This document shows, one piece after another, positions 7,360 to 57,449 of a DNA stretch of 64,000 bases. The notes under the pieces are model-generated. The model had not been told where the DNA came from. It made no database searches and was given only the letters and a program-made list of their open reading frames with translations. Origin of the DNA: an uncultured Bacteroidales bacterium (GTDB lineage: Bacteria; Bacteroidota; Bacteroidia; Bacteroidales; UBA10428); NCBI GenBank assembly GCA_964534745.1, contig CAZHQW010000004.1:25376-89375 (forward strand). Reading direction: 5' to 3'. Made by a program: the position numbers and the translations under genes. Every line of letters starts with the position of its first letter. The first letter of the stretch is position 1.

Positions 7360-7367
7360 TATCTTTG
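7360..7367 (+). promoter_or_regulatory. Bacteroidota -7 promoter box
   Basis: TATCTTTG ending 6 nt before ATG 7374. Confidence 0.6.
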
Positions 7368-7373
7368 CTTTAT

Positions 7374-7832
7374 ATGAATAAAAAGTCCAACAGGTACCTG
7401 AGAATATACCAGCAAATCAAAAAAATCTTCAAGAACACGGATGATTTAACAGCCCGCATGGCAACAATAAATGCCCTGCTGTATCACAAGATGCCCGGCT
7501 TCTTCTGGGCAGGTTTTTATTTGCTAAAAGAAGGAAGGCTGGTCGCAGGTCCTTACCAGGGTCCCCTGGCATGCACAGAGCTTGAAAAAAATAAGGGTGT
7601 GTGCTGGGCTGCAATTAATTCGGGAAAAACAATCATAGTGCCGGATGTAAACAAATTTGAGGGACATATTGCATGCAGCAGGCTTTCAAATTCCGAAATT
7701 GCTGTCCCTGTAAAAAATATGATTAATGAAGTGAAAGGAGTACTCGATATTGACAGTAAAAAGTTAAACAACTTTGACGGTACTGATTCTATAGAGCTGG
7801 AAAAGATTGTTGGTCTGCTTTATAATGTTTAG
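7374..7832 (+). CDS. msrC: GAF-domain free methionine-R-sulfoxide reductase (fRMsr)
   Basis: WAGFYL, GPYQGPLAC, GVC, GHIAC...SEIAVP, VLDIDS; three family Cys present. Confidence 0.8.
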   Translation: MNKKSNRYLRIYQQIKKIFKNTDDLTARMATINALLYHKMPGFFWAGFYLLKEGRLVAGPYQGPLACTELEKNKGVCWAAINSGKTIIVPDVNKFEGHIACSRLSNSEIAVPVKNMINEVKGVLDIDSKKLNNFDGTDSIELEKIVGLLYNV

Positions 7833-7854: not shown

Positions 7855-8226
7855 TCACTTTTTGATAAAAGCTTCAAGCATATTCATAATCTTCTGCACT
7901 GAGTATGGCTTGGTCAGCAACTGATCAAAACCCACGTCTTTATAATTATCGAAGAATATCTTTGGATTATGTGCCGTGAGCGCCACAATAGGTATGTTAT
8001 TTTTGGGAGGTACCATCATTCGCCTTATATGCCTCGTTGCTTCAATACCATTCATCACAGGCATTTCGATATCCATCAGTATCAGGTTAATATCATCATT
8101 TGTCATCAGTGACTCGATAGCTATCTTGCCATTCTCAGCTTCGAGATGTTCGTGGCCCAGATCCTCAACTATTTCTGATAACAATAACCTGTTTGTAAAA
8201 ATATCGTCCGTTATTAGGATTTTCAT
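7855..8226 (-). CDS. single-domain response regulator (REC)
   Basis: ITDD, ILMDIEMPVMNG, ALTA, TKP. Confidence 0.92.
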   Translation of the reverse strand: MKILITDDIFTNRLLLSEIVEDLGHEHLEAENGKIAIESLMTNDDINLILMDIEMPVMNGIEATRHIRRMMVPPKNNIPIVALTAHNPKIFFDNYKDVGFDQLLTKPYSVQKIMNMLEAFIKK

Positions 8227-8252: not shown

Positions 8253-8930
8253 TCAGCCCAACTGACTGAGGGTTTTGATTATATTTATACTGTTTATTGT
8301 AACCCTGGCACCCTCCAGATTTATTATCTTATCATGTTTAAACTCAGCCAGGGTCCTTATAAAGCTCTCCTTGGTCGTACCCGCCAGTTCTGCAAGTTCC
8401 TTCCTGGTAAAAGGGAATTCGAATTCATCGCTTTTATACAGTATTTCCGAGAAATACAATATGACATCTGCAATACGGCCAGGCAGCTGTTTATGGGACT
8501 GACTCATTAGCCTTTCAAAGATGAACAGTCCGTCATTACTGATAAGGCTTATGATCTTTAGTGTAAACTCCCCGTTAGTCTTAAGTACCTTATTAAAAAC
8601 ATCGATATCAATAAAACATATTTCCGACGGATGAATTGCTGAAGCCGAATACTGGTGCATATCTCCACCGTAAATGGACATAAGCCCCAGAAAATCGTCA
8701 GGCATAGCTATTCTCAGAATTATATACTTGTTGTTCCTTCCTTCCTTGAATATTTTAATCAGTCCGGACTTAACAAACATTATGTGGGATGTGCGGGTAT
8801 TCTGCCTGAATATAACTTCCTTTTTATCATATTTCACAACATTGCTATGTTGCAAAATTTCTTCAACCTCTTCCTCACCGAGACAACTGCTAAACGGTAT
8901 TACATAACCTTTATCACTAATTACGACCAT
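8253..8930 (-). CDS. Crp/Fnr family transcriptional regulator
   Basis: cNMP-binding-fold barrel, GRIA, HTH TRKELAELAGTTKESFIRTL. Confidence 0.92.
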   Translation of the reverse strand: MVVISDKGYVIPFSSCLGEEEVEEILQHSNVVKYDKKEVIFRQNTRTSHIMFVKSGLIKIFKEGRNNKYIILRIAMPDDFLGLMSIYGGDMHQYSASAIHPSEICFIDIDVFNKVLKTNGEFTLKIISLISNDGLFIFERLMSQSHKQLPGRIADVILYFSEILYKSDEFEFPFTRKELAELAGTTKESFIRTLAEFKHDKIINLEGARVTINSINIIKTLSQLG

Positions 8931-9185: not shown

Positions 9186-9569
9186 ATGAAACTTAAGAAA
9201 GATAATTATTTACTTATTGTTGATGATTCCACTACCAATGTAGTTTTACTGGAAGCTGTCTTTGACGAGAAGGGATATAAGATTGAAACCGCCTTTAGCG
9301 CAAAAGAGGCTTTCGGAATAATCGAAAAACAAACTCCCGACCTTATTTTACTGGATTTGTTAATGCCAAAGATAAACGGATTTGATTTTCTCAGGCAGCT
9401 AAGGAGGAAGAAAGCTACAAGGGACACTCCTGTTATTGTAATTTCAGCTGCAACTGACGAAGAGAATGTCCACAGAATAATGGAAATGGGAGCAGTTGAT
9501 TTCATTAAAAAGCCTATTGATCTTGACTATCTGGTAGAGAAGGTTGAATCTGTCTTAATCAAGAAGTGA
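9186..9569 (+). CDS. single-domain response regulator (REC)
   Basis: IVDD, ILLDLLMPKING, ISA, KKP. Confidence 0.92.
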   Translation: MKLKKDNYLLIVDDSTTNVVLLEAVFDEKGYKIETAFSAKEAFGIIEKQTPDLILLDLLMPKINGFDFLRQLRRKKATRDTPVIVISAATDEENVHRIMEMGAVDFIKKPIDLDYLVEKVESVLIKK

Positions 9570-9707: not shown

Positions 9708-10082
9708 ATGGGCAAAATGAAAAGGGTCTTAATAGTTGATGACAACATGATGATGCGCAGGCTTATCAGAAATGTCTTCAGAAATGAGAGATTTGATATT
9801 ATGGAGGCAAAGAACGGAATGGAGGGCCTTCATCTTGCCAACCAGAACTCCTTTGACGTTGTAATAACCGATATAGTTATGCCTGAAATGGAAGGTATTC
9901 AGTTCATAATTGAACTGAGAAAGATTGCACCCCGAATAAAAATAGTGGCAATATCAGGAGGCAGGCCCTACTATCTTTATGTGGCTAAAAAGCTCGGAAT
10001 AGAAGCCATATTTACGAAACCCCTGAATCATCTTGAATTCGTAAATACAGTGAAAAAGATTGCATACAACCACCAGTCATAA
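9708..10082 (+). CDS. single-domain response regulator (REC)
   Basis: IVDD, VITDIVMPEMEG, ISGG, TKP. Confidence 0.92.
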   Translation: MGKMKRVLIVDDNMMMRRLIRNVFRNERFDIMEAKNGMEGLHLANQNSFDVVITDIVMPEMEGIQFIIELRKIAPRIKIVAISGGRPYYLYVAKKLGIEAIFTKPLNHLEFVNTVKKIAYNHQS

Positions 10083-10239
10083 TTCCACAAAAAATCATAT
10101 TGTTAATACAAGCTTCCAAGGTTTAATAAAAAACCGCAGCTTGTTCAATAAAGTTTTATTAAAAATATTATTTTAAAGAAATATTAATTATTTTTAGATA
10201 TAGTCTTTCTGTATTTAAAAGTTATTTAATATTGTCCTC

Positions 10240-12504
10240 ATGGAAAATAAAAAAGAGTCCATTGTCCAATTAACAATTCTGGCTATTATTATTTCTTTGC
10301 TTTTTCCTGTTGCAGCGATATTTATTGATATAATACTCCACGAGAGTTTTTCCTATACTTTGAGTGACTTTATGCGCCTTTATGCTGAAAATCCCATACA
10401 GTACATTATTTTATCGCTTGTAATTATTATTCCCGTGGTCACCTTCTTTTCCATAAGGTATTTTTCAAAAATCATGGATAAGAAGCAGAAAATTATCGAT
10501 TCCGAAAAACACAAGACAAAAAGAATAGAAGAGTTTACAAAAAAACTGATACAGGAAGATTTTTCGCATGATTTCGAAAGTGATAAGGACGATAGTCTTG
10601 GAAAATCATTACTGAATCTAAGGGACAAGTTAAAGGGAAATAAAGAGACCGACCTAAAGAGAAGAAAGGAAGATGAACAAAGGAACTGGACTGCAGAGGG
10701 ACTGGCAAAGTTTGGAGATATACTCAGAAATGAGATAGACAACGTTGAATCACTGTCATTCAGTATTATCAAGGAGCTTACAAATTATATCGATGCAACG
10801 CAGGGAGGGTTTTATCTGCTTAAAAACAGCGACGGCAAGGAGAAGTTTTTTGACATGACAGCGTTCTTTGCCTATGACCGCAAAAAGTTCGCCAATAAAC
10901 AAATCGCCTGGGGTGACGGATTGATAGGTACAAGTGCGGCAGAGAAAAAGTCAATATATGTAACCGATGTTCCCGAGGACTATGTTAGTGTAACATCCGG
11001 ATTGGGATACACAAATCCCAAGTCAATACTGGTTGTTCCATTGATAAAAGATGACAATATTTTCGGAGTTATTGAATTCGCTTCTTTGAATAAAATTGAA
11101 TCCTACCAGCTTGATTTTGTTGAAAAGGTAGCGGAGAATATCGCCTCGACATTATCAATGGCTGAAATAAGCATAAAAACAACCAGGCTGCTTGAGGAAA
11201 CAAAAGCCCAAGCCCAGGCCCTTACCTCACAGGAAGAAGAGATGAGACAGAACATGGAAGAATTACAGGCCACCCAGGAAGAAGCGACAAGACAGGCAGA
11301 AAAGTTTGTGCTTATGGAAAACACGGTAAATCATACCATGATTCGCGCCGAATATGATAAGGAAGGCTACCTTTTGTATGCAAATACCAAGTTTCTCAAT
11401 AAGCTGGGGTATTCAATGACAGAAGAAGTGGAAGGAAAACATATAACTGAATTCATCGGCAAAAAAGACAGGGAATGGTTTAAGGAAATATGGGATAACC
11501 TTGCCAAGGGAGGCAGGCACTTTGAAGGATATATGAAACATATAACAAAGGCAGGAAAGGACCTCTGGACGATGGCGACATATACCTGCATAAGACTTGA
11601 TAATGGTCAGGTGGACAAGATCCTTTTTCTAGCCCTTGATACTACAGAACATAAAAATCTCAGCCTTAAGATGGAAGGTATAATTGAATCGGTGAACCGC
11701 TCAGGTATTAAGATCGAATTTGATATAAACGGTAATATTGCTGATTACAATGAATCATTTCAACATCTGTTCAAATATACTAACACAGATATTACATCCC
11801 TTTCTGTGTTTGATCTTATAAATCCGCTTGAGCTTGAGAGTTTTAACAAAAAGTGGGAAACTGTAATCAAGGGGGTCGGATTCCAGGGACAGTTCAAGGT
11901 TAAAACCAAAAATGACGAGGAAAGATGGATAAGGGGAGCTTTCAGCGTAATATACGACATGTACGGCGATGTAGATAAGATCTTCTTTATCGGCCAGGAT
12001 ATTACAAATGAAAAGAAGATGGAATTAAACCTTAGAGAACAGACTGAAATACTTAGAAACCAGGAAAAGCTGTTGCGTGAATCCAAAAAGGAACTGACAA
12101 GGAAACTGAGGGAAGAAAAGCTTGAAATGAAAAACCAGTATAGTGCAATCGAGAAAGTTAAAAACAGGAATGAAAAGACCCTTGAGGAATTACCGGATGC
12201 AGTAGTGACTATTGGAAGCGATAATAAAATAGTATTCTTTAATAAAGCTGCAGAGAAATTGTGGGGTTATGGCAGAAGTGAGGTCCTCAACCAGGATGTT
12301 GGCATTTTATTCTCAGAAAAGACAATTGACGTGGATGAATTTGTGGCAGCTATTGTTGGACCCGGTGATAATAAGATTATTAATAAAAGGAAAAAAACAA
12401 AGGTACTAACCAAAGACAGGAAAGAAAGGGAAGTAACGATTCTGCTGGCAAGAGCCAGGCTTGAAGACGAGACAACATACACAGCCTTCATAAATTATAT
12501 TTAA
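10240..12504 (+). CDS. membrane sensor: 2 TM, HAMP-like, GAF, coiled coil, three PAS; no output domain
   Basis: Two hydrophobic helices; NW..EGLAKF..ILR GAF start; EEMRQNMEELQATQEE coil; PAS motifs (LYAN..FL, DITNEK, FFNKAAEKLWGY). Confidence 0.8.
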   Translation: MENKKESIVQLTILAIIISLLFPVAAIFIDIILHESFSYTLSDFMRLYAENPIQYIILSLVIIIPVVTFFSIRYFSKIMDKKQKIIDSEKHKTKRIEEFTKKLIQEDFSHDFESDKDDSLGKSLLNLRDKLKGNKETDLKRRKEDEQRNWTAEGLAKFGDILRNEIDNVESLSFSIIKELTNYIDATQGGFYLLKNSDGKEKFFDMTAFFAYDRKKFANKQIAWGDGLIGTSAAEKKSIYVTDVPEDYVSVTSGLGYTNPKSILVVPLIKDDNIFGVIEFASLNKIESYQLDFVEKVAENIASTLSMAEISIKTTRLLEETKAQAQALTSQEEEMRQNMEELQATQEEATRQAEKFVLMENTVNHTMIRAEYDKEGYLLYANTKFLNKLGYSMTEEVEGKHITEFIGKKDREWFKEIWDNLAKGGRHFEGYMKHITKAGKDLWTMATYTCIRLDNGQVDKILFLALDTTEHKNLSLKMEGIIESVNRSGIKIEFDINGNIADYNESFQHLFKYTNTDITSLSVFDLINPLELESFNKKWETVIKGVGFQGQFKVKTKNDEERWIRGAFSVIYDMYGDVDKIFFIGQDITNEKKMELNLREQTEILRNQEKLLRESKKELTRKLREEKLEMKNQYSAIEKVKNRNEKTLEELPDAVVTIGSDNKIVFFNKAAEKLWGYGRSEVLNQDVGILFSEKTIDVDEFVAAIVGPGDNKIINKRKKTKVLTKDRKEREVTILLARARLEDETTYTAFINYI

Positions 12505-12550
12505 AAAGGATTTTCTGCAGAATGCATAGGCCCGGAAAAAAAAGCGGATA

Positions 12551-14107
12551 ATGCAAAAGAAAGATGATTATTGTTACCAGCTATTAAAAGTCCTTGAACT
12601 TGAGAATATTGGATACTGGACAAAAGAAAAGGACAGTGATATAATGCATTTTTCTGAAATGGCGGCGCAAATAATAGGTCTTATGACCGGTGATTTATCC
12701 ATGAAGTTGAATGATTTCCTTGGCAATGTCTATTCAGAAGACAGGCACACCCTTGAGCATTACATTAATGAGCTGCCCGGGGGAAAAGATTTCACCGAGT
12801 GCATCTTTAAGATGATGAGGTTTAATTCGGAAACCAAAGAAGTTATAAATTTATCAACGCGCATAACGAATATCTATGGTTATGACAGCAAGAACCTCCT
12901 TATATTAGGTACTATATCAGACATTACGAAACAGGAAAAACTCAAAAGGGAAGCCCTGAGGATAAAAGAGAAAGCTGAAGAGCTTTACATGCAAAAGAAC
13001 ATATTCCTTGCTAATATCTCACATGAGATAAGGACCCCTATGAACTCGATTGTAGGTTTCTCGGAACTGCTGAATATAGGTAATCTTGATGCCCGCACCC
13101 GCAATGAATACTTTAGAATAATTAAACATCAGGGCCTTCAATTGCAAAAGCTGGTAGATGATATTTCCGAACTGGCAAAATATGAAACAGGCGAGCTGAA
13201 AATCAATAAATCACCATGCAACTTCAATTTATTAATTAACGAGTTATTAATCAGTTTTAACCATCATAAATCCAAACTTAACAAGGATAATGTCACAATA
13301 AAGATTAGTCTGCCGCACAGCGAGGAAATAATAGGGTACACAGATTCGGGAAGGATAACCCAGATATTGTCAAATCTGATAAATACCTCCTTGTATTTCA
13401 CTGACAGGGGAATAATAGAAATAGGTTATTACAAGGCTGATGATAAAAAGTTAATATTCTATGTTAAGGACACGGGAGCCGGTTTTACGGCAGATGAACA
13501 GAAGTATATATTTGACAGACTCTCACAGGTTGAGGAAACGATTATAAAAAAATTTGAGGGACTGGGATTAAGCCTTACCATTTCCAAAGGTCTCGTTAAA
13601 CTGATGGGTGGCAAAATATGGCTGGAATCAGAGCCAGGTTCTGGTACAACATACTACTTTCAGATACCTTATGAGGAACTCCCTCACGATGATACGCCGG
13701 AAGAAATTGAAGAAGCTCCTGTCCTGTCGCAATACAGCTGGAAAGACAGAATAATTATTATAGTTGAGGATGATGAGATAAATTACAGGTTTCTTGAAGC
13801 TGTGCTCCATAACACTGATGCGCGGATCATACATGCCGATAACGGATACCAGGCCATTGACCTTTGCAAATCGATAAATAAGATCGATTTGATACTTATG
13901 GATCTTAAACTGCCTGATATTAGCGGCTTTGATGCAACACTCGAGATCAGGAAGATAAATAAGGACATACCTGTCATAGCACAGACAGCCCTTGTGCTTA
14001 AGGAGGAAAAAGAGAAATGCCTCAAGGCAGGTTGCAATGACATCATTACCAAGCCCATTGAAATAGGTAAGCTTCTCAGACTTATAAACAAATATCTTAG
14101 TGAATAG
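12551..14107 (+). CDS. cytoplasmic hybrid histidine kinase-receiver with degenerate ATP-binding motifs
   Basis: H-box FLANISHEIRTPMN, G1 DTGAG, REC ILMDLKLP...KP; N-box reads NLINTSLYFT and G2 reads GLGLS. Confidence 0.85.
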   Translation: MQKKDDYCYQLLKVLELENIGYWTKEKDSDIMHFSEMAAQIIGLMTGDLSMKLNDFLGNVYSEDRHTLEHYINELPGGKDFTECIFKMMRFNSETKEVINLSTRITNIYGYDSKNLLILGTISDITKQEKLKREALRIKEKAEELYMQKNIFLANISHEIRTPMNSIVGFSELLNIGNLDARTRNEYFRIIKHQGLQLQKLVDDISELAKYETGELKINKSPCNFNLLINELLISFNHHKSKLNKDNVTIKISLPHSEEIIGYTDSGRITQILSNLINTSLYFTDRGIIEIGYYKADDKKLIFYVKDTGAGFTADEQKYIFDRLSQVEETIIKKFEGLGLSLTISKGLVKLMGGKIWLESEPGSGTTYYFQIPYEELPHDDTPEEIEEAPVLSQYSWKDRIIIIVEDDEINYRFLEAVLHNTDARIIHADNGYQAIDLCKSINKIDLILMDLKLPDISGFDATLEIRKINKDIPVIAQTALVLKEEKEKCLKAGCNDIITKPIEIGKLLRLINKYLSE

Positions 14108-14492
14108 CCCTTTGCCGCACCTTTGCTCTTCTTATGTAGTCCCTGATATTTAAATATATTGAAATTGCAAATGCTGCGAGGAATGAAACAAGAGTGACAG
14201 TATTTATAAAACGGGGGTCAAAGTCCAGTCCGCTTAGCCTGTCTGCCAGATATTTTACGTATGAATCAGGCAGTCCGGTATGACCCATCTTTACAAGTAT
14301 CTTGAAATGCCAGTCAGTGAGAGGGCAGTAACCCATTCCGCAGAAAATGCCCAGAATAAACCAGGATGCACAGGTCAGGGAAAGGGTTATTAGATTAAGC
14401 TTCCTGGTTTTTCTGAAAATCCAGCCGAACAAATTAAAGAATATTAAAAGTGTATGAAATGTTATAAAGAAAAAATCAACTAATTTTAGCAT
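14097..14492 (-). CDS. DUF2784 family membrane protein
   Basis: FH...F.LFGW, GYCPLTDW motif, three TM segments. Confidence 0.75.
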   Translation of the reverse strand: MLKLVDFFFITFHTLLIFFNLFGWIFRKTRKLNLITLSLTCASWFILGIFCGMGYCPLTDWHFKILVKMGHTGLPDSYVKYLADRLSGLDFDPRFINTVTLVSFLAAFAISIYLNIRDYIRRAKVRQRAIH

Positions 14493-14498
14493 GGTAAT

Positions 14499-14780
14499 AT
14501 GCAGGTTTTAATGATACATAAAGATATTCAAATATTCGGAATGGTTCAGGGTGTCGGATTCAGATATTCGGCCAGGCATGCCGCAATAAATTACGGCATT
14601 AAAGGCTATGTGAGGAATATGCCTGACGGCAGTGTTTATATTGAAGCTGAGGGACAGGAACAGAATATGGCCGAATTTATTAAATGGTGCAGGAAAGGAC
14701 CCGGCTCAGCATATATCGAAAACATAAATGTCGAAGAGGGCGCAATGAAGAATTTTGAACTCTTTGATATCAGGTTTTAA
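14499..14780 (+). CDS. acyP: acylphosphatase
   Basis: G.VQGVGFR, GYVRN.PDGSV.I.AEG, GP; start may be ATG 14511. Confidence 0.92.
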   Translation: MQVLMIHKDIQIFGMVQGVGFRYSARHAAINYGIKGYVRNMPDGSVYIEAEGQEQNMAEFIKWCRKGPGSAYIENINVEEGAMKNFELFDIRF

Positions 14781-53615: not shown

Positions 53616-56600
53616 ATGAAACGATTGGTTTTCATATTGATACTCATATCTATATTCCAGGGATTATTCTGCCAGGGAAGAAACTATCTTTTTACAAACA
53701 TTGACAAATCCCAGGGTCTTTCACATAACCACATCCAGACCTTTATGCGCGACAATAAAGGATTTATCTGGATAGGCACATGGGAGGGACTGTGCAGGTT
53801 TGACGGATACTCCTTCAAGATCTTTAAGAAGAATATAAATGACAGCAACTCAATAAGGGACAATATTATTAATGATCTCTTTGAAGATAATAGAGGCAAC
53901 ATCTGGATAGCGGCAGGCGACTATATGGAAGTTTTCGATCCGGAGACTGAAGTGTTTTCCCACCGCCAGACCCTCTTTAACAATCGCGTTACTGTGCCTG
54001 TAAGAAGCCGCTGGTATTGCGCTTATGATCAGAATAAAAACATTATATATGCAAATGACAGGGATGGCATATATAAATATATTGTATCGTCAGATTCATT
54101 ATTTAAGATTCATTTCCCGCATATAGACTCTTTAAAGACAGTATCTTATATTAATGTCGACAATAACGGAAGCCTGTGGATTGCCTGCACAAATTCGTAC
54201 CTCTACAAATTACACAGGGATAATTATCTTATTATTGACAGTGTGAAACTGATAAAGAAGTTTCATAACCTGTACCGGTTTTTCATCGACAGGGATAATG
54301 ATATCTGGATATTTGACAAGGATAATGCTTCCGGCATTATTTACTATGATACTGACAAAGATAAAGTCAGCTATTTTAATACGGAGTCAGAAAAATGCAG
54401 GCTTAATAATAATTCGATTACCGGTGTGATACAGGATGAAAGCGGATTAATATGGATATCTACCGACCATGGGGGAATAAACATTATAGATAAAAGTGAT
54501 TTCAGTATCAGGTATGTATTGAATAATCCGTTTAATGAAAGAAGCCTTGTTGACAATGCTATTACATGCATTTACAAGGATTACCAGAATTTTATCTGGG
54601 TAGGTTCATTTAAAAAAGGCATAAGTTATTATCACGAAAACCTGTTCAATTTTAATTTATATAAAATAAAGCTGGATAATGCCACAACATACGGGTATAA
54701 TGATATAGACAATTTCGCCGAGGACAGCAAGGGTAACCTGTGGATCGGCACAAACGGAGGAGGTTTAATATATTTCGACAGGAGTAACAACAGTTTCAGG
54801 CAGTACGTTCACGATCCTGAAAATTCTAACAGCCTAAGCGCCAATATAATAGTAGGAATGCTGATGGATAAGAACAACAGGTTATGGGCAGGCACCTATT
54901 TCGGAGGATTGAATATATATGAGAATGGAAGGTTCCAGCATCTCATGAATGTACCGGGCGATCCGACAACCATATCAGATGACAGGATATGGGATATATG
55001 CCAGGACAGCGACGGGAAAATATGGATTGGTACCCTGCTGGGAGGAGTTAATGTTATTGATCCGGTATCAAAAAAGGTCACCAAGCAATTCCTGGAGGAA
55101 GGTGATTCATCAATAAGGTCCGACCATGTATTTTCCGTTATCGAAGACAGGGACAGCCTGATGTGGTTTGCCACAATATACGGACTAAGGTCATATGATA
55201 AAAAAACAAAAAAATTCAGGTATTTCGAGCATGATGAGAAGAATCCCAACAGCCTTAGCAATAACTTCGTTTACGACGTTTACGAAGATTCAAGGGGATT
55301 TATCTGGGCCGGCACTACTGACGGTTTAAATATGTATGATAAAAAAACCAATAGCTTTAAAATTTTCAGGCAGGAAGAGGGACTGCCTTCAAACGTCATA
55401 CTCACAATTATTGAAGATAATAACCGCAACTTATGGATGAGCACTACAAACGGACTGTCAAATCTGGTTGTAACAGAGGACAGGACATCCGGAACATATA
55501 ACTTCAGATTCAAGAACTACGATGTCAATGACGGCCTGCAGAGCAATGAGTTCAATGAAAAAGCGGTATTTAAGACAAGCAGGGGTGAGTTGCTTTTCGG
55601 GGGGCCCAATGGTTTCAACCTGTTCGATCCTGATGATATTAAAGCCATAAACATCAATTCGGATATAGTATTCACGGATTTCCAGATATTCAATAAAAGC
55701 ATAACCAGCAAGGATATTATAAACGGCAAAAAGATACTGACCAGATCAATAACCTATACAGATGAAATAACGCTCAGCTATAAAGAAAATGTCTTTGCAA
55801 TTGAATTTGCCGATTTGAACTTCCTGCACCCCGAAAGGCGATTATATATTTACAAGCTCGAAAACTTCAACAAGGAATGGCTACTAACTGACGGCAGAAA
55901 CCGAAAAGCAACTTATACCAATCTTGATCCGGGTACCTATATTTTCAGGGTAAAAACAACAAATACCGACGAAACATGGGTTAACAGGGAAGCCCTGCTT
56001 ACAGTTAGCATTATGCCCCCCTGGTGGCAGACCCTCGCCTTTAAAGTACTTATTGTTGTTGCGGTTATATCGCTTTCCGTACTATTCTATTATAACCTTA
56101 AAATGCGATGGAAGAAACAACAGAAAATTCTTGAAAATGAAGTAACCAAGAGGACCTATGAATTATCGGAAGCATACACATTGCTTGAAAAAAGGCAAAA
56201 AGAAATAAGTGCACAGAACAAGGAACTGGAAACACACAGGAACAGGCTTGAGGAACTTGTCACAGAGCGTACTGGAGAGCTTGAAAAAGCACTGCTTAAA
56301 GCAGAAGAGTCAGACAGGCTCAAGTCAGCATTCCTGGCAAATATGTCGCATGAGATACGCACACCTCTTAATGCCATTGTCGGCTTCTCATCATTGCTTA
56401 AAAATGAGAATATCACAAAAAAACAAATACAGAATTATATTGATACAATTAATACAAACAGTGATTCATTGCTTATTTTAATAAATGATATTCTTGACCT
56501 CTCAAGAATAGAGGCGGACCAGCTTAAAATAAACAAGTCGGCTTTTAATGTTAACCAGATTCTTGAGGAACTGGAAAATTACTATAACCTGAGCAACGAT

Positions 56601-57449
56601 AATGCAATATCTATAACTTTCGTCAATAAGGATCATAAACAGAAATTATTAATATATAACGATCCGGTCAGGTTTAAGCAGGTGCTTTCAAATCTGCTTG
56701 ACAATGCCAAAAAATATACTGAGAAAGGATTTATAAGGTTCGGTTACAACTTAAAACCCGGCAATATCGAATTTTTTGTGTCTGACACAGGAATAGGGAT
56801 AAAAAAGTCAGATTTTGACAAGGTATTCAACCACTTTTACAAAATTGAAAACAACGGAAGAAAGATATACAGGGGAACCGGACTGGGACTGGCCATATGC
56901 AAAAGGCTGGTTAACCTTATGGGAGGAGAAATATGGCTGGAGTCTGAAGAGGGGAAAGGTAGTACGTTTTACTTTGGCCTGCCGCTGGCAACACTGGAGC
57001 AAGATAAGCGGAAGATTACAACATCGGGAAAACCCCACAAGCCGCTTGAAAGTTACAAAAAACTGGAGATCATAGTAGCTGAAGACGAACCCGACAATTT
57101 CAGCCTGATAAAAAGCATCCTGAAAAAATATCACGCCTCGGTGCTATGGGCCAAAAATGGTAAAGAAGCTGTCGAATACGTACGCTCATCAAGGAACAAA
57201 GGTAAAATGCTTGTCATTATGGACATCAAAATGCCTGTAATGAATGGCATTGACGCATTAAATGAAATAAGAAAACTTGACAGCAACATACCTGTCATCG
57301 CTGTCACTGCCTATGCCCACCAGGATGAGAAGTATGAGATACTCAAAAACTCTTTCAATGATTATATAATTAAACCTTTAAGACCTGAAATGCTTATTAA
57401 CAGCATCGAAAAAGTAATACATGGTAATGGCAAATCTCTTTACAACTAG
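53616..57449 (+). CDS. hybrid two-component sensor (beta-propeller, Y_Y_Y, TM, HisKA, HATPase, REC) without AraC domain
   Basis: Repeated W.GT..GG blades, YTNLDPGTY.FRVK, SHEIRTPLN, NLLDNAKKYT, GTGLG, REC at the C-terminus. Confidence 0.92.
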   Translation: MKRLVFILILISIFQGLFCQGRNYLFTNIDKSQGLSHNHIQTFMRDNKGFIWIGTWEGLCRFDGYSFKIFKKNINDSNSIRDNIINDLFEDNRGNIWIAAGDYMEVFDPETEVFSHRQTLFNNRVTVPVRSRWYCAYDQNKNIIYANDRDGIYKYIVSSDSLFKIHFPHIDSLKTVSYINVDNNGSLWIACTNSYLYKLHRDNYLIIDSVKLIKKFHNLYRFFIDRDNDIWIFDKDNASGIIYYDTDKDKVSYFNTESEKCRLNNNSITGVIQDESGLIWISTDHGGINIIDKSDFSIRYVLNNPFNERSLVDNAITCIYKDYQNFIWVGSFKKGISYYHENLFNFNLYKIKLDNATTYGYNDIDNFAEDSKGNLWIGTNGGGLIYFDRSNNSFRQYVHDPENSNSLSANIIVGMLMDKNNRLWAGTYFGGLNIYENGRFQHLMNVPGDPTTISDDRIWDICQDSDGKIWIGTLLGGVNVIDPVSKKVTKQFLEEGDSSIRSDHVFSVIEDRDSLMWFATIYGLRSYDKKTKKFRYFEHDEKNPNSLSNNFVYDVYEDSRGFIWAGTTDGLNMYDKKTNSFKIFRQEEGLPSNVILTIIEDNNRNLWMSTTNGLSNLVVTEDRTSGTYNFRFKNYDVNDGLQSNEFNEKAVFKTSRGELLFGGPNGFNLFDPDDIKAININSDIVFTDFQIFNKSITSKDIINGKKILTRSITYTDEITLSYKENVFAIEFADLNFLHPERRLYIYKLENFNKEWLLTDGRNRKATYTNLDPGTYIFRVKTTNTDETWVNREALLTVSIMPPWWQTLAFKVLIVVAVISLSVLFYYNLKMRWKKQQKILENEVTKRTYELSEAYTLLEKRQKEISAQNKELETHRNRLEELVTERTGELEKALLKAEESDRLKSAFLANMSHEIRTPLNAIVGFSSLLKNENITKKQIQNYIDTINTNSDSLLILINDILDLSRIEADQLKINKSAFNVNQILEELENYYNLSNDNAISITFVNKDHKQKLLIYNDPVRFKQVLSNLLDNAKKYTEKGFIRFGYNLKPGNIEFFVSDTGIGIKKSDFDKVFNHFYKIENNGRKIYRGTGLGLAICKRLVNLMGGEIWLESEEGKGSTFYFGLPLATLEQDKRKITTSGKPHKPLESYKKLEIIVAEDEPDNFSLIKSILKKYHASVLWAKNGKEAVEYVRSSRNKGKMLVIMDIKMPVMNGIDALNEIRKLDSNIPVIAVTAYAHQDEKYEILKNSFNDYIIKPLRPEMLINSIEKVIHGNGKSLYN

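Follow-up and report, generated by a model that had tools for sequence, protein, structure and literature searches.

The locus described here raises the question of what a hybrid histidine-kinase-like protein does when the residues that carry its phosphoryl groups are intact and some of those that hold its ATP are not. The gene in question lies on the plus strand, at 12551..14107, of a 64,000-nucleotide stretch (hereafter, the window) of contig CAZHQW010000004.1 from an uncultured Bacteroidales bacterium. According to its open reading frame (ORF), its translation, Pfam and an AlphaFold2 model, it encodes a protein of 518 residues with a PAS-like domain, a dimerization and histidine phosphotransfer domain (DHp; HisKA), a catalytic and ATP-binding domain (CA; HATPase_c) and a receiver (REC). 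A preliminary description, made from the letters of the window alone, had pointed to positions 13361-13579, which are internal to this ORF, and had proposed a pseudokinase that works in phosphotransfer, as a phosphatase or as a scaffold rather than as an autokinase. On balance, we lean moderately towards a kinase-negative transmitter that would be competent in phosphatase or phosphotransfer reactions, in the manner of RetS or EnvZ-N347D, because an altered ATP site is combined with an intact H158-E-I-R-T162 motif and an intact Asp451. In effect, autophosphorylation with Mg-ATP at a useful rate would presumably no longer be possible.

The ATP site and the phosphoryl-carrying sites

In general, the protein has the architecture of a hybrid histidine kinase. 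HisKA (PF00512; residues 149-214; 60.7 bits against a cut-off of 26.9), HATPase_c (PF02518, the Bergerat fold; residues 265-375; 73.6 bits against 26.4) and Response_reg (residues 402-512) all score above their curated Pfam cut-offs, and an NCBIfam scan returned only generic hybrid kinases (TorS, LuxQ, BarA and ArcB), each far under its cut-off. The AlphaFold2 model, with a mean predicted local distance difference test (pLDDT) score of 85.5, has normal topology for the PAS domain, the two-helix DHp, the alpha/beta CA domain and the receiver. Its secondary structure places the PAS-like fold at residues 18-124 (12602..12922). The best Foldseek matches of the model are WalK, VicK, HK853, ShkA, DivL and RetS, and template modelling scores, normalised to the target, of 0.7-0.9 against HK853, WalK and YycG indicate that the HATPase_c fold is present.

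In the known structures of HK853, PhoQ and EnvZ, the Mg2+ of Mg-ATP is coordinated by the second Asn of the N-box, whose Lys touches the phosphates. The N-box of the 518-residue protein, QILSNLINTSLYFT (residues 271-284; 13361..13402), has Thr279 (codon ACC, 13385-13387) instead of this Asn and Tyr282 (codon at 13394-13396) instead of this Lys. The assignment comes from HMMER alignments to HK853 (3dge, 4jas), GacS (7z8n) and ShkA (6qrj), in all of which the N-box span is ungapped, with residues mapped by chain index (the phospho-His of HK853, at index 29, is residue 260). These alignments place Thr279 on HK853 Asn380, Tyr282 on Lys383 and Ser341 on Gly445. Thus, a Thr stands where a Mg-coordinating Asn is called for, and a Tyr where a Lys or Arg is. 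The first N-box Asn (N275) is retained and aligns with HK853 Asn376; it is the residue that pairs with the acid following the phospho-acceptor His (PMC8292422).

The remaining motifs of the pocket are less altered. The G1 box, D307-T-G309-A-G311-F312 (13469..13486; VKDTGAGF with its preceding residues), keeps the Asp and both Gly of DxGxG. It is followed by the segment of the ATP lid (residues 313-336; 13487..13558), which includes the F-box IFDRL (13508-13522) and is modelled with a pLDDT of 65-69, a lower value that is usual for lids. In the G2 box, G337-L338-G339-L340-S341-L342 (GLGLSL; 13559..13576), G337 and G339 are retained, the third Gly is replaced by Ser341 (codon AGC, 13571-13573), and Leu338 occupies the place of a Ser or Thr. 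For comparison, the intact hybrid two-component system protein of the window (53616-57449) reads QVLSNLLDNAKKYT at the N-box and GTGLGL at G2. The two substitutions named in the preliminary description, Asn to Thr in the N-box and Gly to Ser in G2, are therefore real, and the motifs that it quoted from the intact protein are correct; its list was incomplete, as it missed the change of Lys to Tyr282, Phe312 in place of the G1+5 Leu, and Leu338 in place of the G2 Ser.

How unusual these residues are can be judged from two sets of sequences. In a background of 103 unrelated hybrid kinases, taken from loci fetched via receiver-domain patterns, the equivalents of positions 279, 282 and 341 are Asn, Lys and Gly without exception (103/103 each). 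Among 101 more distant orthologs of the protein, Asn is found at 279 in 101/101, Lys or Arg at 282 in 98/101 and Gly at 341 in 97/101. There is also a related subfamily, whose members are mostly of about 650 residues and in a few cases of about 455-540, where the third G2 Gly is changed to Ser or Asn and the N-box Asn and Lys are intact. Its members include P0134, P0157, P0160, P0189 and P0240, as well as P0161, P0179, P0181 and P0253; several carry an extra N-terminal region, and four representatives have Tyr in place of the His, as DivL does.

A search of 5.8 billion proteins yielded 120 close relatives. Of these, 19 that come from JGI, ENA, NCBI and Logan assemblies are the nearest, at 61-93% identity; together with the window protein they make up a clade of 20 orthologs from salt-marsh and sediment Bacteroidales, recovered in independent metagenomes. 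This clade is monophyletic in a maximum-likelihood tree, with a Shimodaira-Hasegawa-like approximate likelihood ratio support of 100 (18 full-length rows). Its members have Thr at 279 (19 of 20, with one Asn), an aromatic residue at 282 (Y 18, F 1, W 1) and Ser, Asn or Cys at 341 (S 16, N 3, C 1). Phe312 is specific to the clade, being present in 20/20 members, whereas the other 101 orthologs have Leu (90) or Ile (11). In all, 18 positions are fixed in the clade and fixed otherwise elsewhere; nine of them are in the CA domain, and five of these nine (T279, Y282, F312, L338 and S341) are in nucleotide-binding motifs. The preliminary description had allowed that the substitutions might be private to this assembly. 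They are not: they are common to the clade, and contigs from four separate salt-marsh sequencing runs have N-box and G2 codons identical to those of the window, from which they differ only at 13477, 13492 and 13531. A scan of the GTDB collection of representative genomes gave no ortholog above 48% identity, and the clade is therefore known only from metagenome assemblies. Near-identical sequence (runs X1-X24) has been recovered only from salt-marsh, marsh, marine-sediment and freshwater-sediment metagenomes.

Two simpler accounts of the motifs were considered and rejected. A shift of register, with Asn278 standing in for the Mg-binding Asn, is ruled out by the ungapped alignments and by the lack of conservation at N278, which is variable in the clade (N 16, S 2, T 2) and therefore no substitute for the lost ligand. 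The F-box Leu was also discarded as a lesion. IFDRL had been read correctly in the preliminary description, but the Leu is not diagnostic because the same position varies among canonical orthologs.

In contrast to the altered positions of the ATP site, the sites that carry phosphoryl groups are complete. The H-box core, H158-E-I-R-T162 (13022..13036), has the phospho-acceptor His, an acid at H+1 and a Thr at H+4; in the clade alignment, all 19 members that cover the H-box read SHEIRTPMN or SHEIRTPLN, the window having the former. This is the HExxT/N motif of transmitter phosphatases, as defined in PMC5992135 and PMC8292422. The receiver (residues 401-517; 13751..14104; Pfam) has E406/D407, D451 (13901-13903), T479 and K501, and Asp451 is retained in 122/122 orthologs. 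Thus, neither His158 and its HExxT motif nor Asp451 is altered, as had been noted at the outset for the His and the Asp; three co-encoded single-domain receivers are likewise intact, and all of these are under purifying selection.

The pocket is conserved as well. The G1 Asp and glycines (D307, G309, G311; DxGxG in 20/20) and the G2 glycines G337 and G339 are invariant in the clade, as are E316, Q317, K318, Y319, F321, D322, L324, K334, F335 and E336 of the lid (20/20 each), and the lid is more conserved inside the clade than among the other orthologs. Mean pairwise identity in the clade is 0.82 for DHp, 0.76 for CA, 0.77 for REC, 0.52 for PAS and 0.48 for the linker. The ratio of nonsynonymous to synonymous substitution rates (dN/dS), calculated by the Nei-Gojobori method between the window and a 91%-identical ortholog (locus L001), is 0.067 for CA, 0.067 for DHp, 0.065 for REC, 0.25 for PAS, which is the least conserved of the folded domains, and about 1 for the linker. 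The CA domain is thus under strong purifying selection, equal to that on DHp and REC; it is remodelled, not decaying. Because of this ratio, the kept G1 Asp, the glycines of G1 and G2 and the conserved lid, the ATP pocket can be read as remodelled and still in use, and it is not dead in the sense of being decayed.

Kinase determinants across the orthologous family

The pattern in the family is of more interest than the single gene. Relatives of about 48% identity sit downstream of a gene for a GAF domain and three PAS domains (GAF-3xPAS) and upstream of a conserved series of genes, (GSHPx)-DUF2784-acylphosphatase(-CstA-Usp or Bat operon), as observed in L007-L013, L087, L088/L089, L090, L091 and the contig with P0100. 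They are taken as orthologs and not paralogs because they hold the same syntenic position in different genomes; synteny was checked for about 17 loci, and the orthology of the other rows of the tree follows from similarity and length. For the same reason, a heterodimer in which a His-less and an ATP-site-less paralog complement each other in one cell is ruled out, as the two kinds are syntenic orthologs in different genomes.

These syntenic orthologs are found in very different states. The canonical motifs are present in L007-L010 and L088, while L087 has only lost its His, to Arg. In L011 and L012 the Mg-binding Asn is changed to His, and G1 and G2 glycines are lost; the window clade has the form with Thr, Tyr and Ser. 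In L013 everything is lost. This most eroded locus (L013:1-12499; JAXDCR010000212.1) has Arg for the His and His for the Mg-binding Asn, lacks the G1 Asp, has Glu for a G2 Gly and lacks the GAF-3xPAS gene, yet its kinase ORF is intact and the Asp, Thr and Lys of its receiver are retained.

Of the 122 rows of the tree, 76 have an intact His together with the core residues of the ATP site, and only 48 have all six determinants when the first N-box Asn is included. A determinant of the ATP site is lost in 24, which requires at least 3-4 events, and the His is lost, to Arg, Gln, Asn or Tyr, in 21, which requires at least seven; only one row has lost both. A similar bias is seen in a library of 1.84 billion proteins clustered at 50% identity, where 17 of 25 family-like representatives are degenerate, vs 8 of 123 other hybrid kinases. 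The latter eight, which are short (357-649 residues), probably belong to the same wider family. Taken together, these sequences point to one orthologous family of Bacteroidales in which autokinase determinants were lost independently, and by different routes, ten times or more, with the receiver untouched. The preliminary description had not seen this larger pattern, in which its pseudokinase is one of many independent inactivations.

Several features of the orthologs without the His can be added. Arg replaces it in P0023, P0055, P0057, P0071, P0083, P0091-93, P0104 and P0111, Gln in P0042, P0050-52 and P0062, Asn in P0108 and P0114, and Tyr in P0064. In the group with Arg, the Thr at H+4 is also replaced, by Ile or Met. 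These lineages retain every ATP-binding motif and the receiver over considerable divergence.

The partner genes and the Che block

The gene immediately upstream of the kinase-like gene (10240..12504, plus strand; dN/dS 0.12) encodes a protein of 754 residues with two transmembrane segments, one GAF and three PAS domains by Pfam, and no output domain. Such a gene is found at this place in every locus of sufficient length except L013. The junction between the two genes differs within the clade. In close orthologs, the annotated kinase-like protein has 31 more residues, and the DNA for this basic, low-complexity N-terminus (MKLRRHK...) overlaps with the last part of the GAF-PAS gene. When 12505-12550 of the window is compared with L001:8001-8093, the sole difference is a deletion of about 36 bp in this low-complexity extension of the window, where an in-frame stop is found at 12527; because of the deletion and the stop, the ORF of the window starts at 12551. 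The metagenome protein P0013, which is 93% identical, begins at the same Met. A single frameshifted gene split into two is ruled out, since there are two genes in every locus.

Further upstream are the stand-alone receivers REC2 (124 residues; 9708..10082; dN/dS 0.10) and REC1 (127 residues; 9186..9569; dN/dS 0.09), both recognised by Pfam and on the plus strand. REC2 retains its DD, D, S and K residues in the window and in L001, L004 and L005, and the active site of REC1 is kept across the clade. On the minus strand, a Crp/Fnr-type regulator (8253..8930; dN/dS 0.10), with cNMP_binding and HTH_Crp_2 domains in the orthologous loci, is followed downstream by a third stand-alone receiver, RECm (123 residues; 7855..8226; dN/dS 0.07), which is known from its translation and whose DD, D, T and K are retained across the clade. 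The regulator is a possible transcriptional output of the module. The preliminary description spoke of three receivers; this holds for the stand-alone ones, but the total is four when the receiver of the kinase-like protein itself is counted. A scan for promoters and terminators found no terminator-like site on the plus strand from REC1 to the end of the kinase-like gene.

The order in the window is an fRMsr-type GAF gene (+), a receiver (-), Crp/Fnr (-), two receivers (+), the two-transmembrane GAF-3xPAS gene (+), the kinase-like gene (+), DUF2784 (-), acylphosphatase (+), CstA (-) and Usp (+), and it is also found in the clade loci L001, L004 and L005. The first of these genes (7365-7832, plus strand) encodes a free GAF protein of 155 residues (free methionine-(R)-sulfoxide reductase type; Pfam GAF_2 in orthologs). 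Most loci with the block of REC, Crp, REC and REC retain this gene on the border of the signalling island. DUF2784 and the acylphosphatase (14097-14780) are immediately downstream of the kinase-like gene, and likewise in every ortholog locus of sufficient length (L008-L013, L087-L091), with a protein identity of about 45-60%. Acyl phosphates are hydrolysed by acylphosphatases; one such compound, acetyl phosphate, is able to phosphorylate receivers.

In the fullest of the orthologous loci, L089:5451-13983 (GCA_964503885.1), the GAF-3xPAS gene is separated from the second stand-alone receiver by a Che-like block. Its order is a 601-residue protein that has no Pfam hit, a protein of 101 residues with weak likeness to STAS, CheY, CheA, CheW, CheR, a small HisKA/HATPase kinase of 296 residues, CheD and CheB, and the GAF-PAS gene and the hybrid kinase come directly after it. 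Remnants are found at the same place in L010 (CheR) and L087 (a fragment of CheB). By contrast, tblastn detected no CheA, CheW, CheR or CheB in the window, which has only a gap of 157 bp there (10083-10239). Because of the full block in L089 and the remnants in L010 and L087, set against this gap, it seems that a Che-type cluster was probably ancestral in part of the family and was deleted in the lineage of the window. The loss of the cluster as the cause of degeneration is only loosely supported: L009 and L091 have canonical proteins but no Che genes nearby, degenerate proteins occur in several contexts, and across loci the integrity of the kinase is not strictly linked to Che genes.

The position of the L089 kinase (P0029), a canonical ortholog, beside a CheA cluster resembles that of CheS3 of Rhodospirillum centenum, and CheA could feed the receiver of the L089 kinase, as CheA3 feeds CheS3 (PMC3868531). 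Nevertheless, CheS3 is a REC-PAS-HWE kinase with another domain order, and the locus in the window is without Che genes.

What the transmitter may do

The closest known system is RetS of Pseudomonas aeruginosa, which has a degenerate HATPase domain, does not autophosphorylate, acts as a transmitter phosphatase through an HExxT motif and uses a receiver as a phosphate sink (PMC5992135; structures 6dk7 and 6dk8). Like RetS, which is among both its sequence and its fold matches, the 518-residue protein combines a HisKA domain that has the His and HExxT with an altered ATP domain and a receiver that has its Asp; degenerate ATP motifs with a kept H-box, and HExxT, are what was found. There are also important differences. 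RetS has lost its G-boxes, while in the 518-residue protein G1 is intact and the lesion consists of Thr for Asn and Tyr for Lys in the N-box and Ser for one Gly in G2. Moreover, RetS, a membrane protein of the 7TM-DISMED2 kind, has two receivers and a defined partner kinase, GacS, on which it acts. In contrast, the protein studied here is soluble, with one PAS domain, one receiver and a separate membrane GAF-PAS sensor. At its locus no partner kinase is visible, and three stand-alone receivers are co-encoded. A phosphatase-only HisKA protein is also known in DrBphP (PMC8292422).

The second model is an engineered one. Residue N347 of EnvZ is, from what is known of the N-box, presumably the equivalent of Thr279. 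EnvZ-N347D, in which this Mg-binding position is substituted and the His kept in a HisKA kinase, is kinase-negative and phosphatase-positive and allows reverse phosphotransfer from OmpR to the His, in the accounts that PMC3868531 and PMC5727384 give of Dutta and Inouye (1996; PMID 8576133); the DHp domain of EnvZ alone has phosphatase activity, as a citing paper relates for Zhu et al. (2000). EnvZ-N347D differs in being a single engineered change in a non-hybrid kinase, whereas the change described here arose naturally, has been maintained by selection across a clade and comes with four or more further fixed changes in the pocket.

A mechanism of the same kind can be proposed for the 518-residue protein. 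The phosphoryl groups that it handles would originate elsewhere. It would dephosphorylate receivers as a transmitter phosphatase, and/or take phosphoryl groups back to His158 and pass them on to its own receiver, by reverse phosphotransfer or as a sink; the receivers acted on would be the four of the module (REC1, REC2, RECm and its own). Its own PAS domain and the membrane GAF-3xPAS sensor, presumably co-transcribed with it, would exert control. The CA domain would not be a relic in this scheme but a regulatory element that binds a nucleotide or other ligand or that gates the DHp. Both steps in this reasoning are ones that we infer: that the lesion abolishes kinase activity, and that the intact motifs confer phosphatase activity or back-transfer. 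A shuttle of phosphate between receivers on a DHp His, without ATP, is also what is proposed when ChpT and Spo0B are taken as a likeness. These are DHp-type histidine phosphotransferases that have wholly lost the lid and the motifs and that have no receiver. The 518-residue protein, which retains the lid (313-336), G1, most of G2 and a fused receiver, does not belong to their class.

Several observations weigh against a kinase-negative transmitter. Within the clade there is no variation in the G1 Asp and glycines, in two of the G2 glycines or in the lid, implying that the pocket still binds a ligand, possibly ATP. In other NTPase folds, Mg2+ can be ligated by a Thr hydroxyl. One member deep in the clade, P0014, has regained Asn at 279 with no other change; it stands beside a sister with Thr, and its Asn is therefore a one-base reversal (ACT to AAC). 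The presence of Ser at the third G2 Gly in otherwise canonical relatives of about 650 residues suggests that this change alone may be tolerated. Finally, the locus has no other kinase or histidine phosphotransfer (Hpt) protein, yet four receivers retain complete phospho-acceptor sites; a donor must exist, and the 518-residue protein is the only visible candidate. Thus, the preliminary view of a phosphotransfer protein, phosphatase or scaffold holds as regards the lost Mg ligand and Lys and the intact His158, HExxT and Asp, while the conserved pocket leaves room for residual or altered kinase activity.

The latter idea can be taken further, to a protein that is still an autokinase with a remodelled site and is the donor for its own and the three stand-alone receivers. 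We regard this as rather unlikely, and the same applies to the detail that the hydroxyls of Thr279 (directly or via water) and Tyr282 would replace Asn and Lys, perhaps with a changed preference for metal or nucleotide. It would account for the invariant DxGxG, G337, G339 and lid, for the dN/dS of the CA domain, and for a Che-less locus with no other kinase or Hpt where all receivers have intact active sites. Furthermore, the substitutions are coordinated and conservative in type (T; Y/F/W; S/N/C), unlike random decay, and the clear losers of ATP binding (L011-L013 and the P0097 group) have also lost the G1 Asp or glycines, which the window clade has not. Nevertheless, all 204 other sequences examined have the Mg-binding Asn, EnvZ is kinase-negative when this residue is substituted (PMID 8576133, as related in later work), and the catalytic Lys is gone at the same time. 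In addition, kinase activity is evidently dispensable in the family because the His itself is repeatedly lost. This last fact would suit another proposal, that of a docking protein or sensor that is independent of phosphorylation: DHp-CA would dock to the GAF-PAS sensor or to a phosphorylated receiver and signal by conformation, with His158 chemically unused. Many orthologs are indeed His-less and yet conserved, and DivL of Caulobacter (4q20), a fold match of the 518-residue protein, is a kinase fold that has been repurposed to sense a phosphorylated regulator (PMC4211667), while PsmA of Streptomyces is a His-less hybrid pseudokinase with a role outside phosphorelay (PMC12963549). Both illustrate a histidine-kinase fold that is kept under selection without autokinase activity. 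However, both are without the phospho-acceptor His, whereas the 518-residue protein keeps His158 and alters its ATP site; loss of the His as in DivL and PsmA is found instead in sister lineages of the same orthologous family. The invariance of His158, Glu159 and Thr162 in all covering clade members is hard to explain without chemistry, and the active-site quintets are retained in all four receivers, which together make this proposal improbable. As for an ATP domain that is a decaying relic after the loss of the Che genes, or substitutions that are assembly errors, the stepwise erosion of His, N-box, G1 and G2 in L011-L013, the additional absence of the GAF-PAS gene from L013 and the missing Che block of the window might be cited in favour. 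This explanation is effectively refuted by reading frames that are intact in 20 orthologs, a CA domain whose dN/dS is at the level of DHp and REC, a lid that is better conserved in the clade than in other orthologs, and identical codons in the contigs of four independent runs.

A joint reading of the gene and its family, which we put forward tentatively and do not expect to hold in full, is that the whole family consists of transmitters for which the kinase is optional, with their selected function in the invariant receiver and the DHp/CA scaffold, and that the pocket of the window clade has been re-specialised, under strong selection, for a different ligand. The role of the family may be that of a sink, a phosphatase or a sensor of a phosphorylated regulator, originally fed by a linked CheA pathway. 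Autophosphorylation may have become dispensable, with the His lost in at least seven lineages and the ATP site in at least three. Phosphatase activity or back-transfer may be gated by the ligand of the pocket, which would be a nucleotide without metal or a second messenger.

Pseudo-histidine kinases are an established kind of protein (DivL, RetS, PsmA), of which the 518-residue protein is a new member with a predicted function. We found no description of its particular signature, in which a pocket with an intact G1 and a conserved lid has Thr for Asn, Tyr for Lys and Ser for Gly. In general, dead or repurposed histidine kinases such as RetS, DivL, PsmA and RcsD link signalling pathways, and few have been studied, most of them found singly. 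As the hosts are uncultured Bacteroidales of salt marshes and sediments, the practical impact is limited to signalling biology. One consequence concerns annotation, where the default label of "sensor histidine kinase" is unsuited to this orthologous family. Beyond this, a single locus offers a natural comparative series of proteins that are canonical (one with a chemosensory cluster), His-less, altered in the ATP site or fully eroded, with a perfect receiver throughout. Such a series could reveal which activities of a bifunctional transmitter are selected, and by which route a kinase becomes a phosphatase, a sink or a scaffold.

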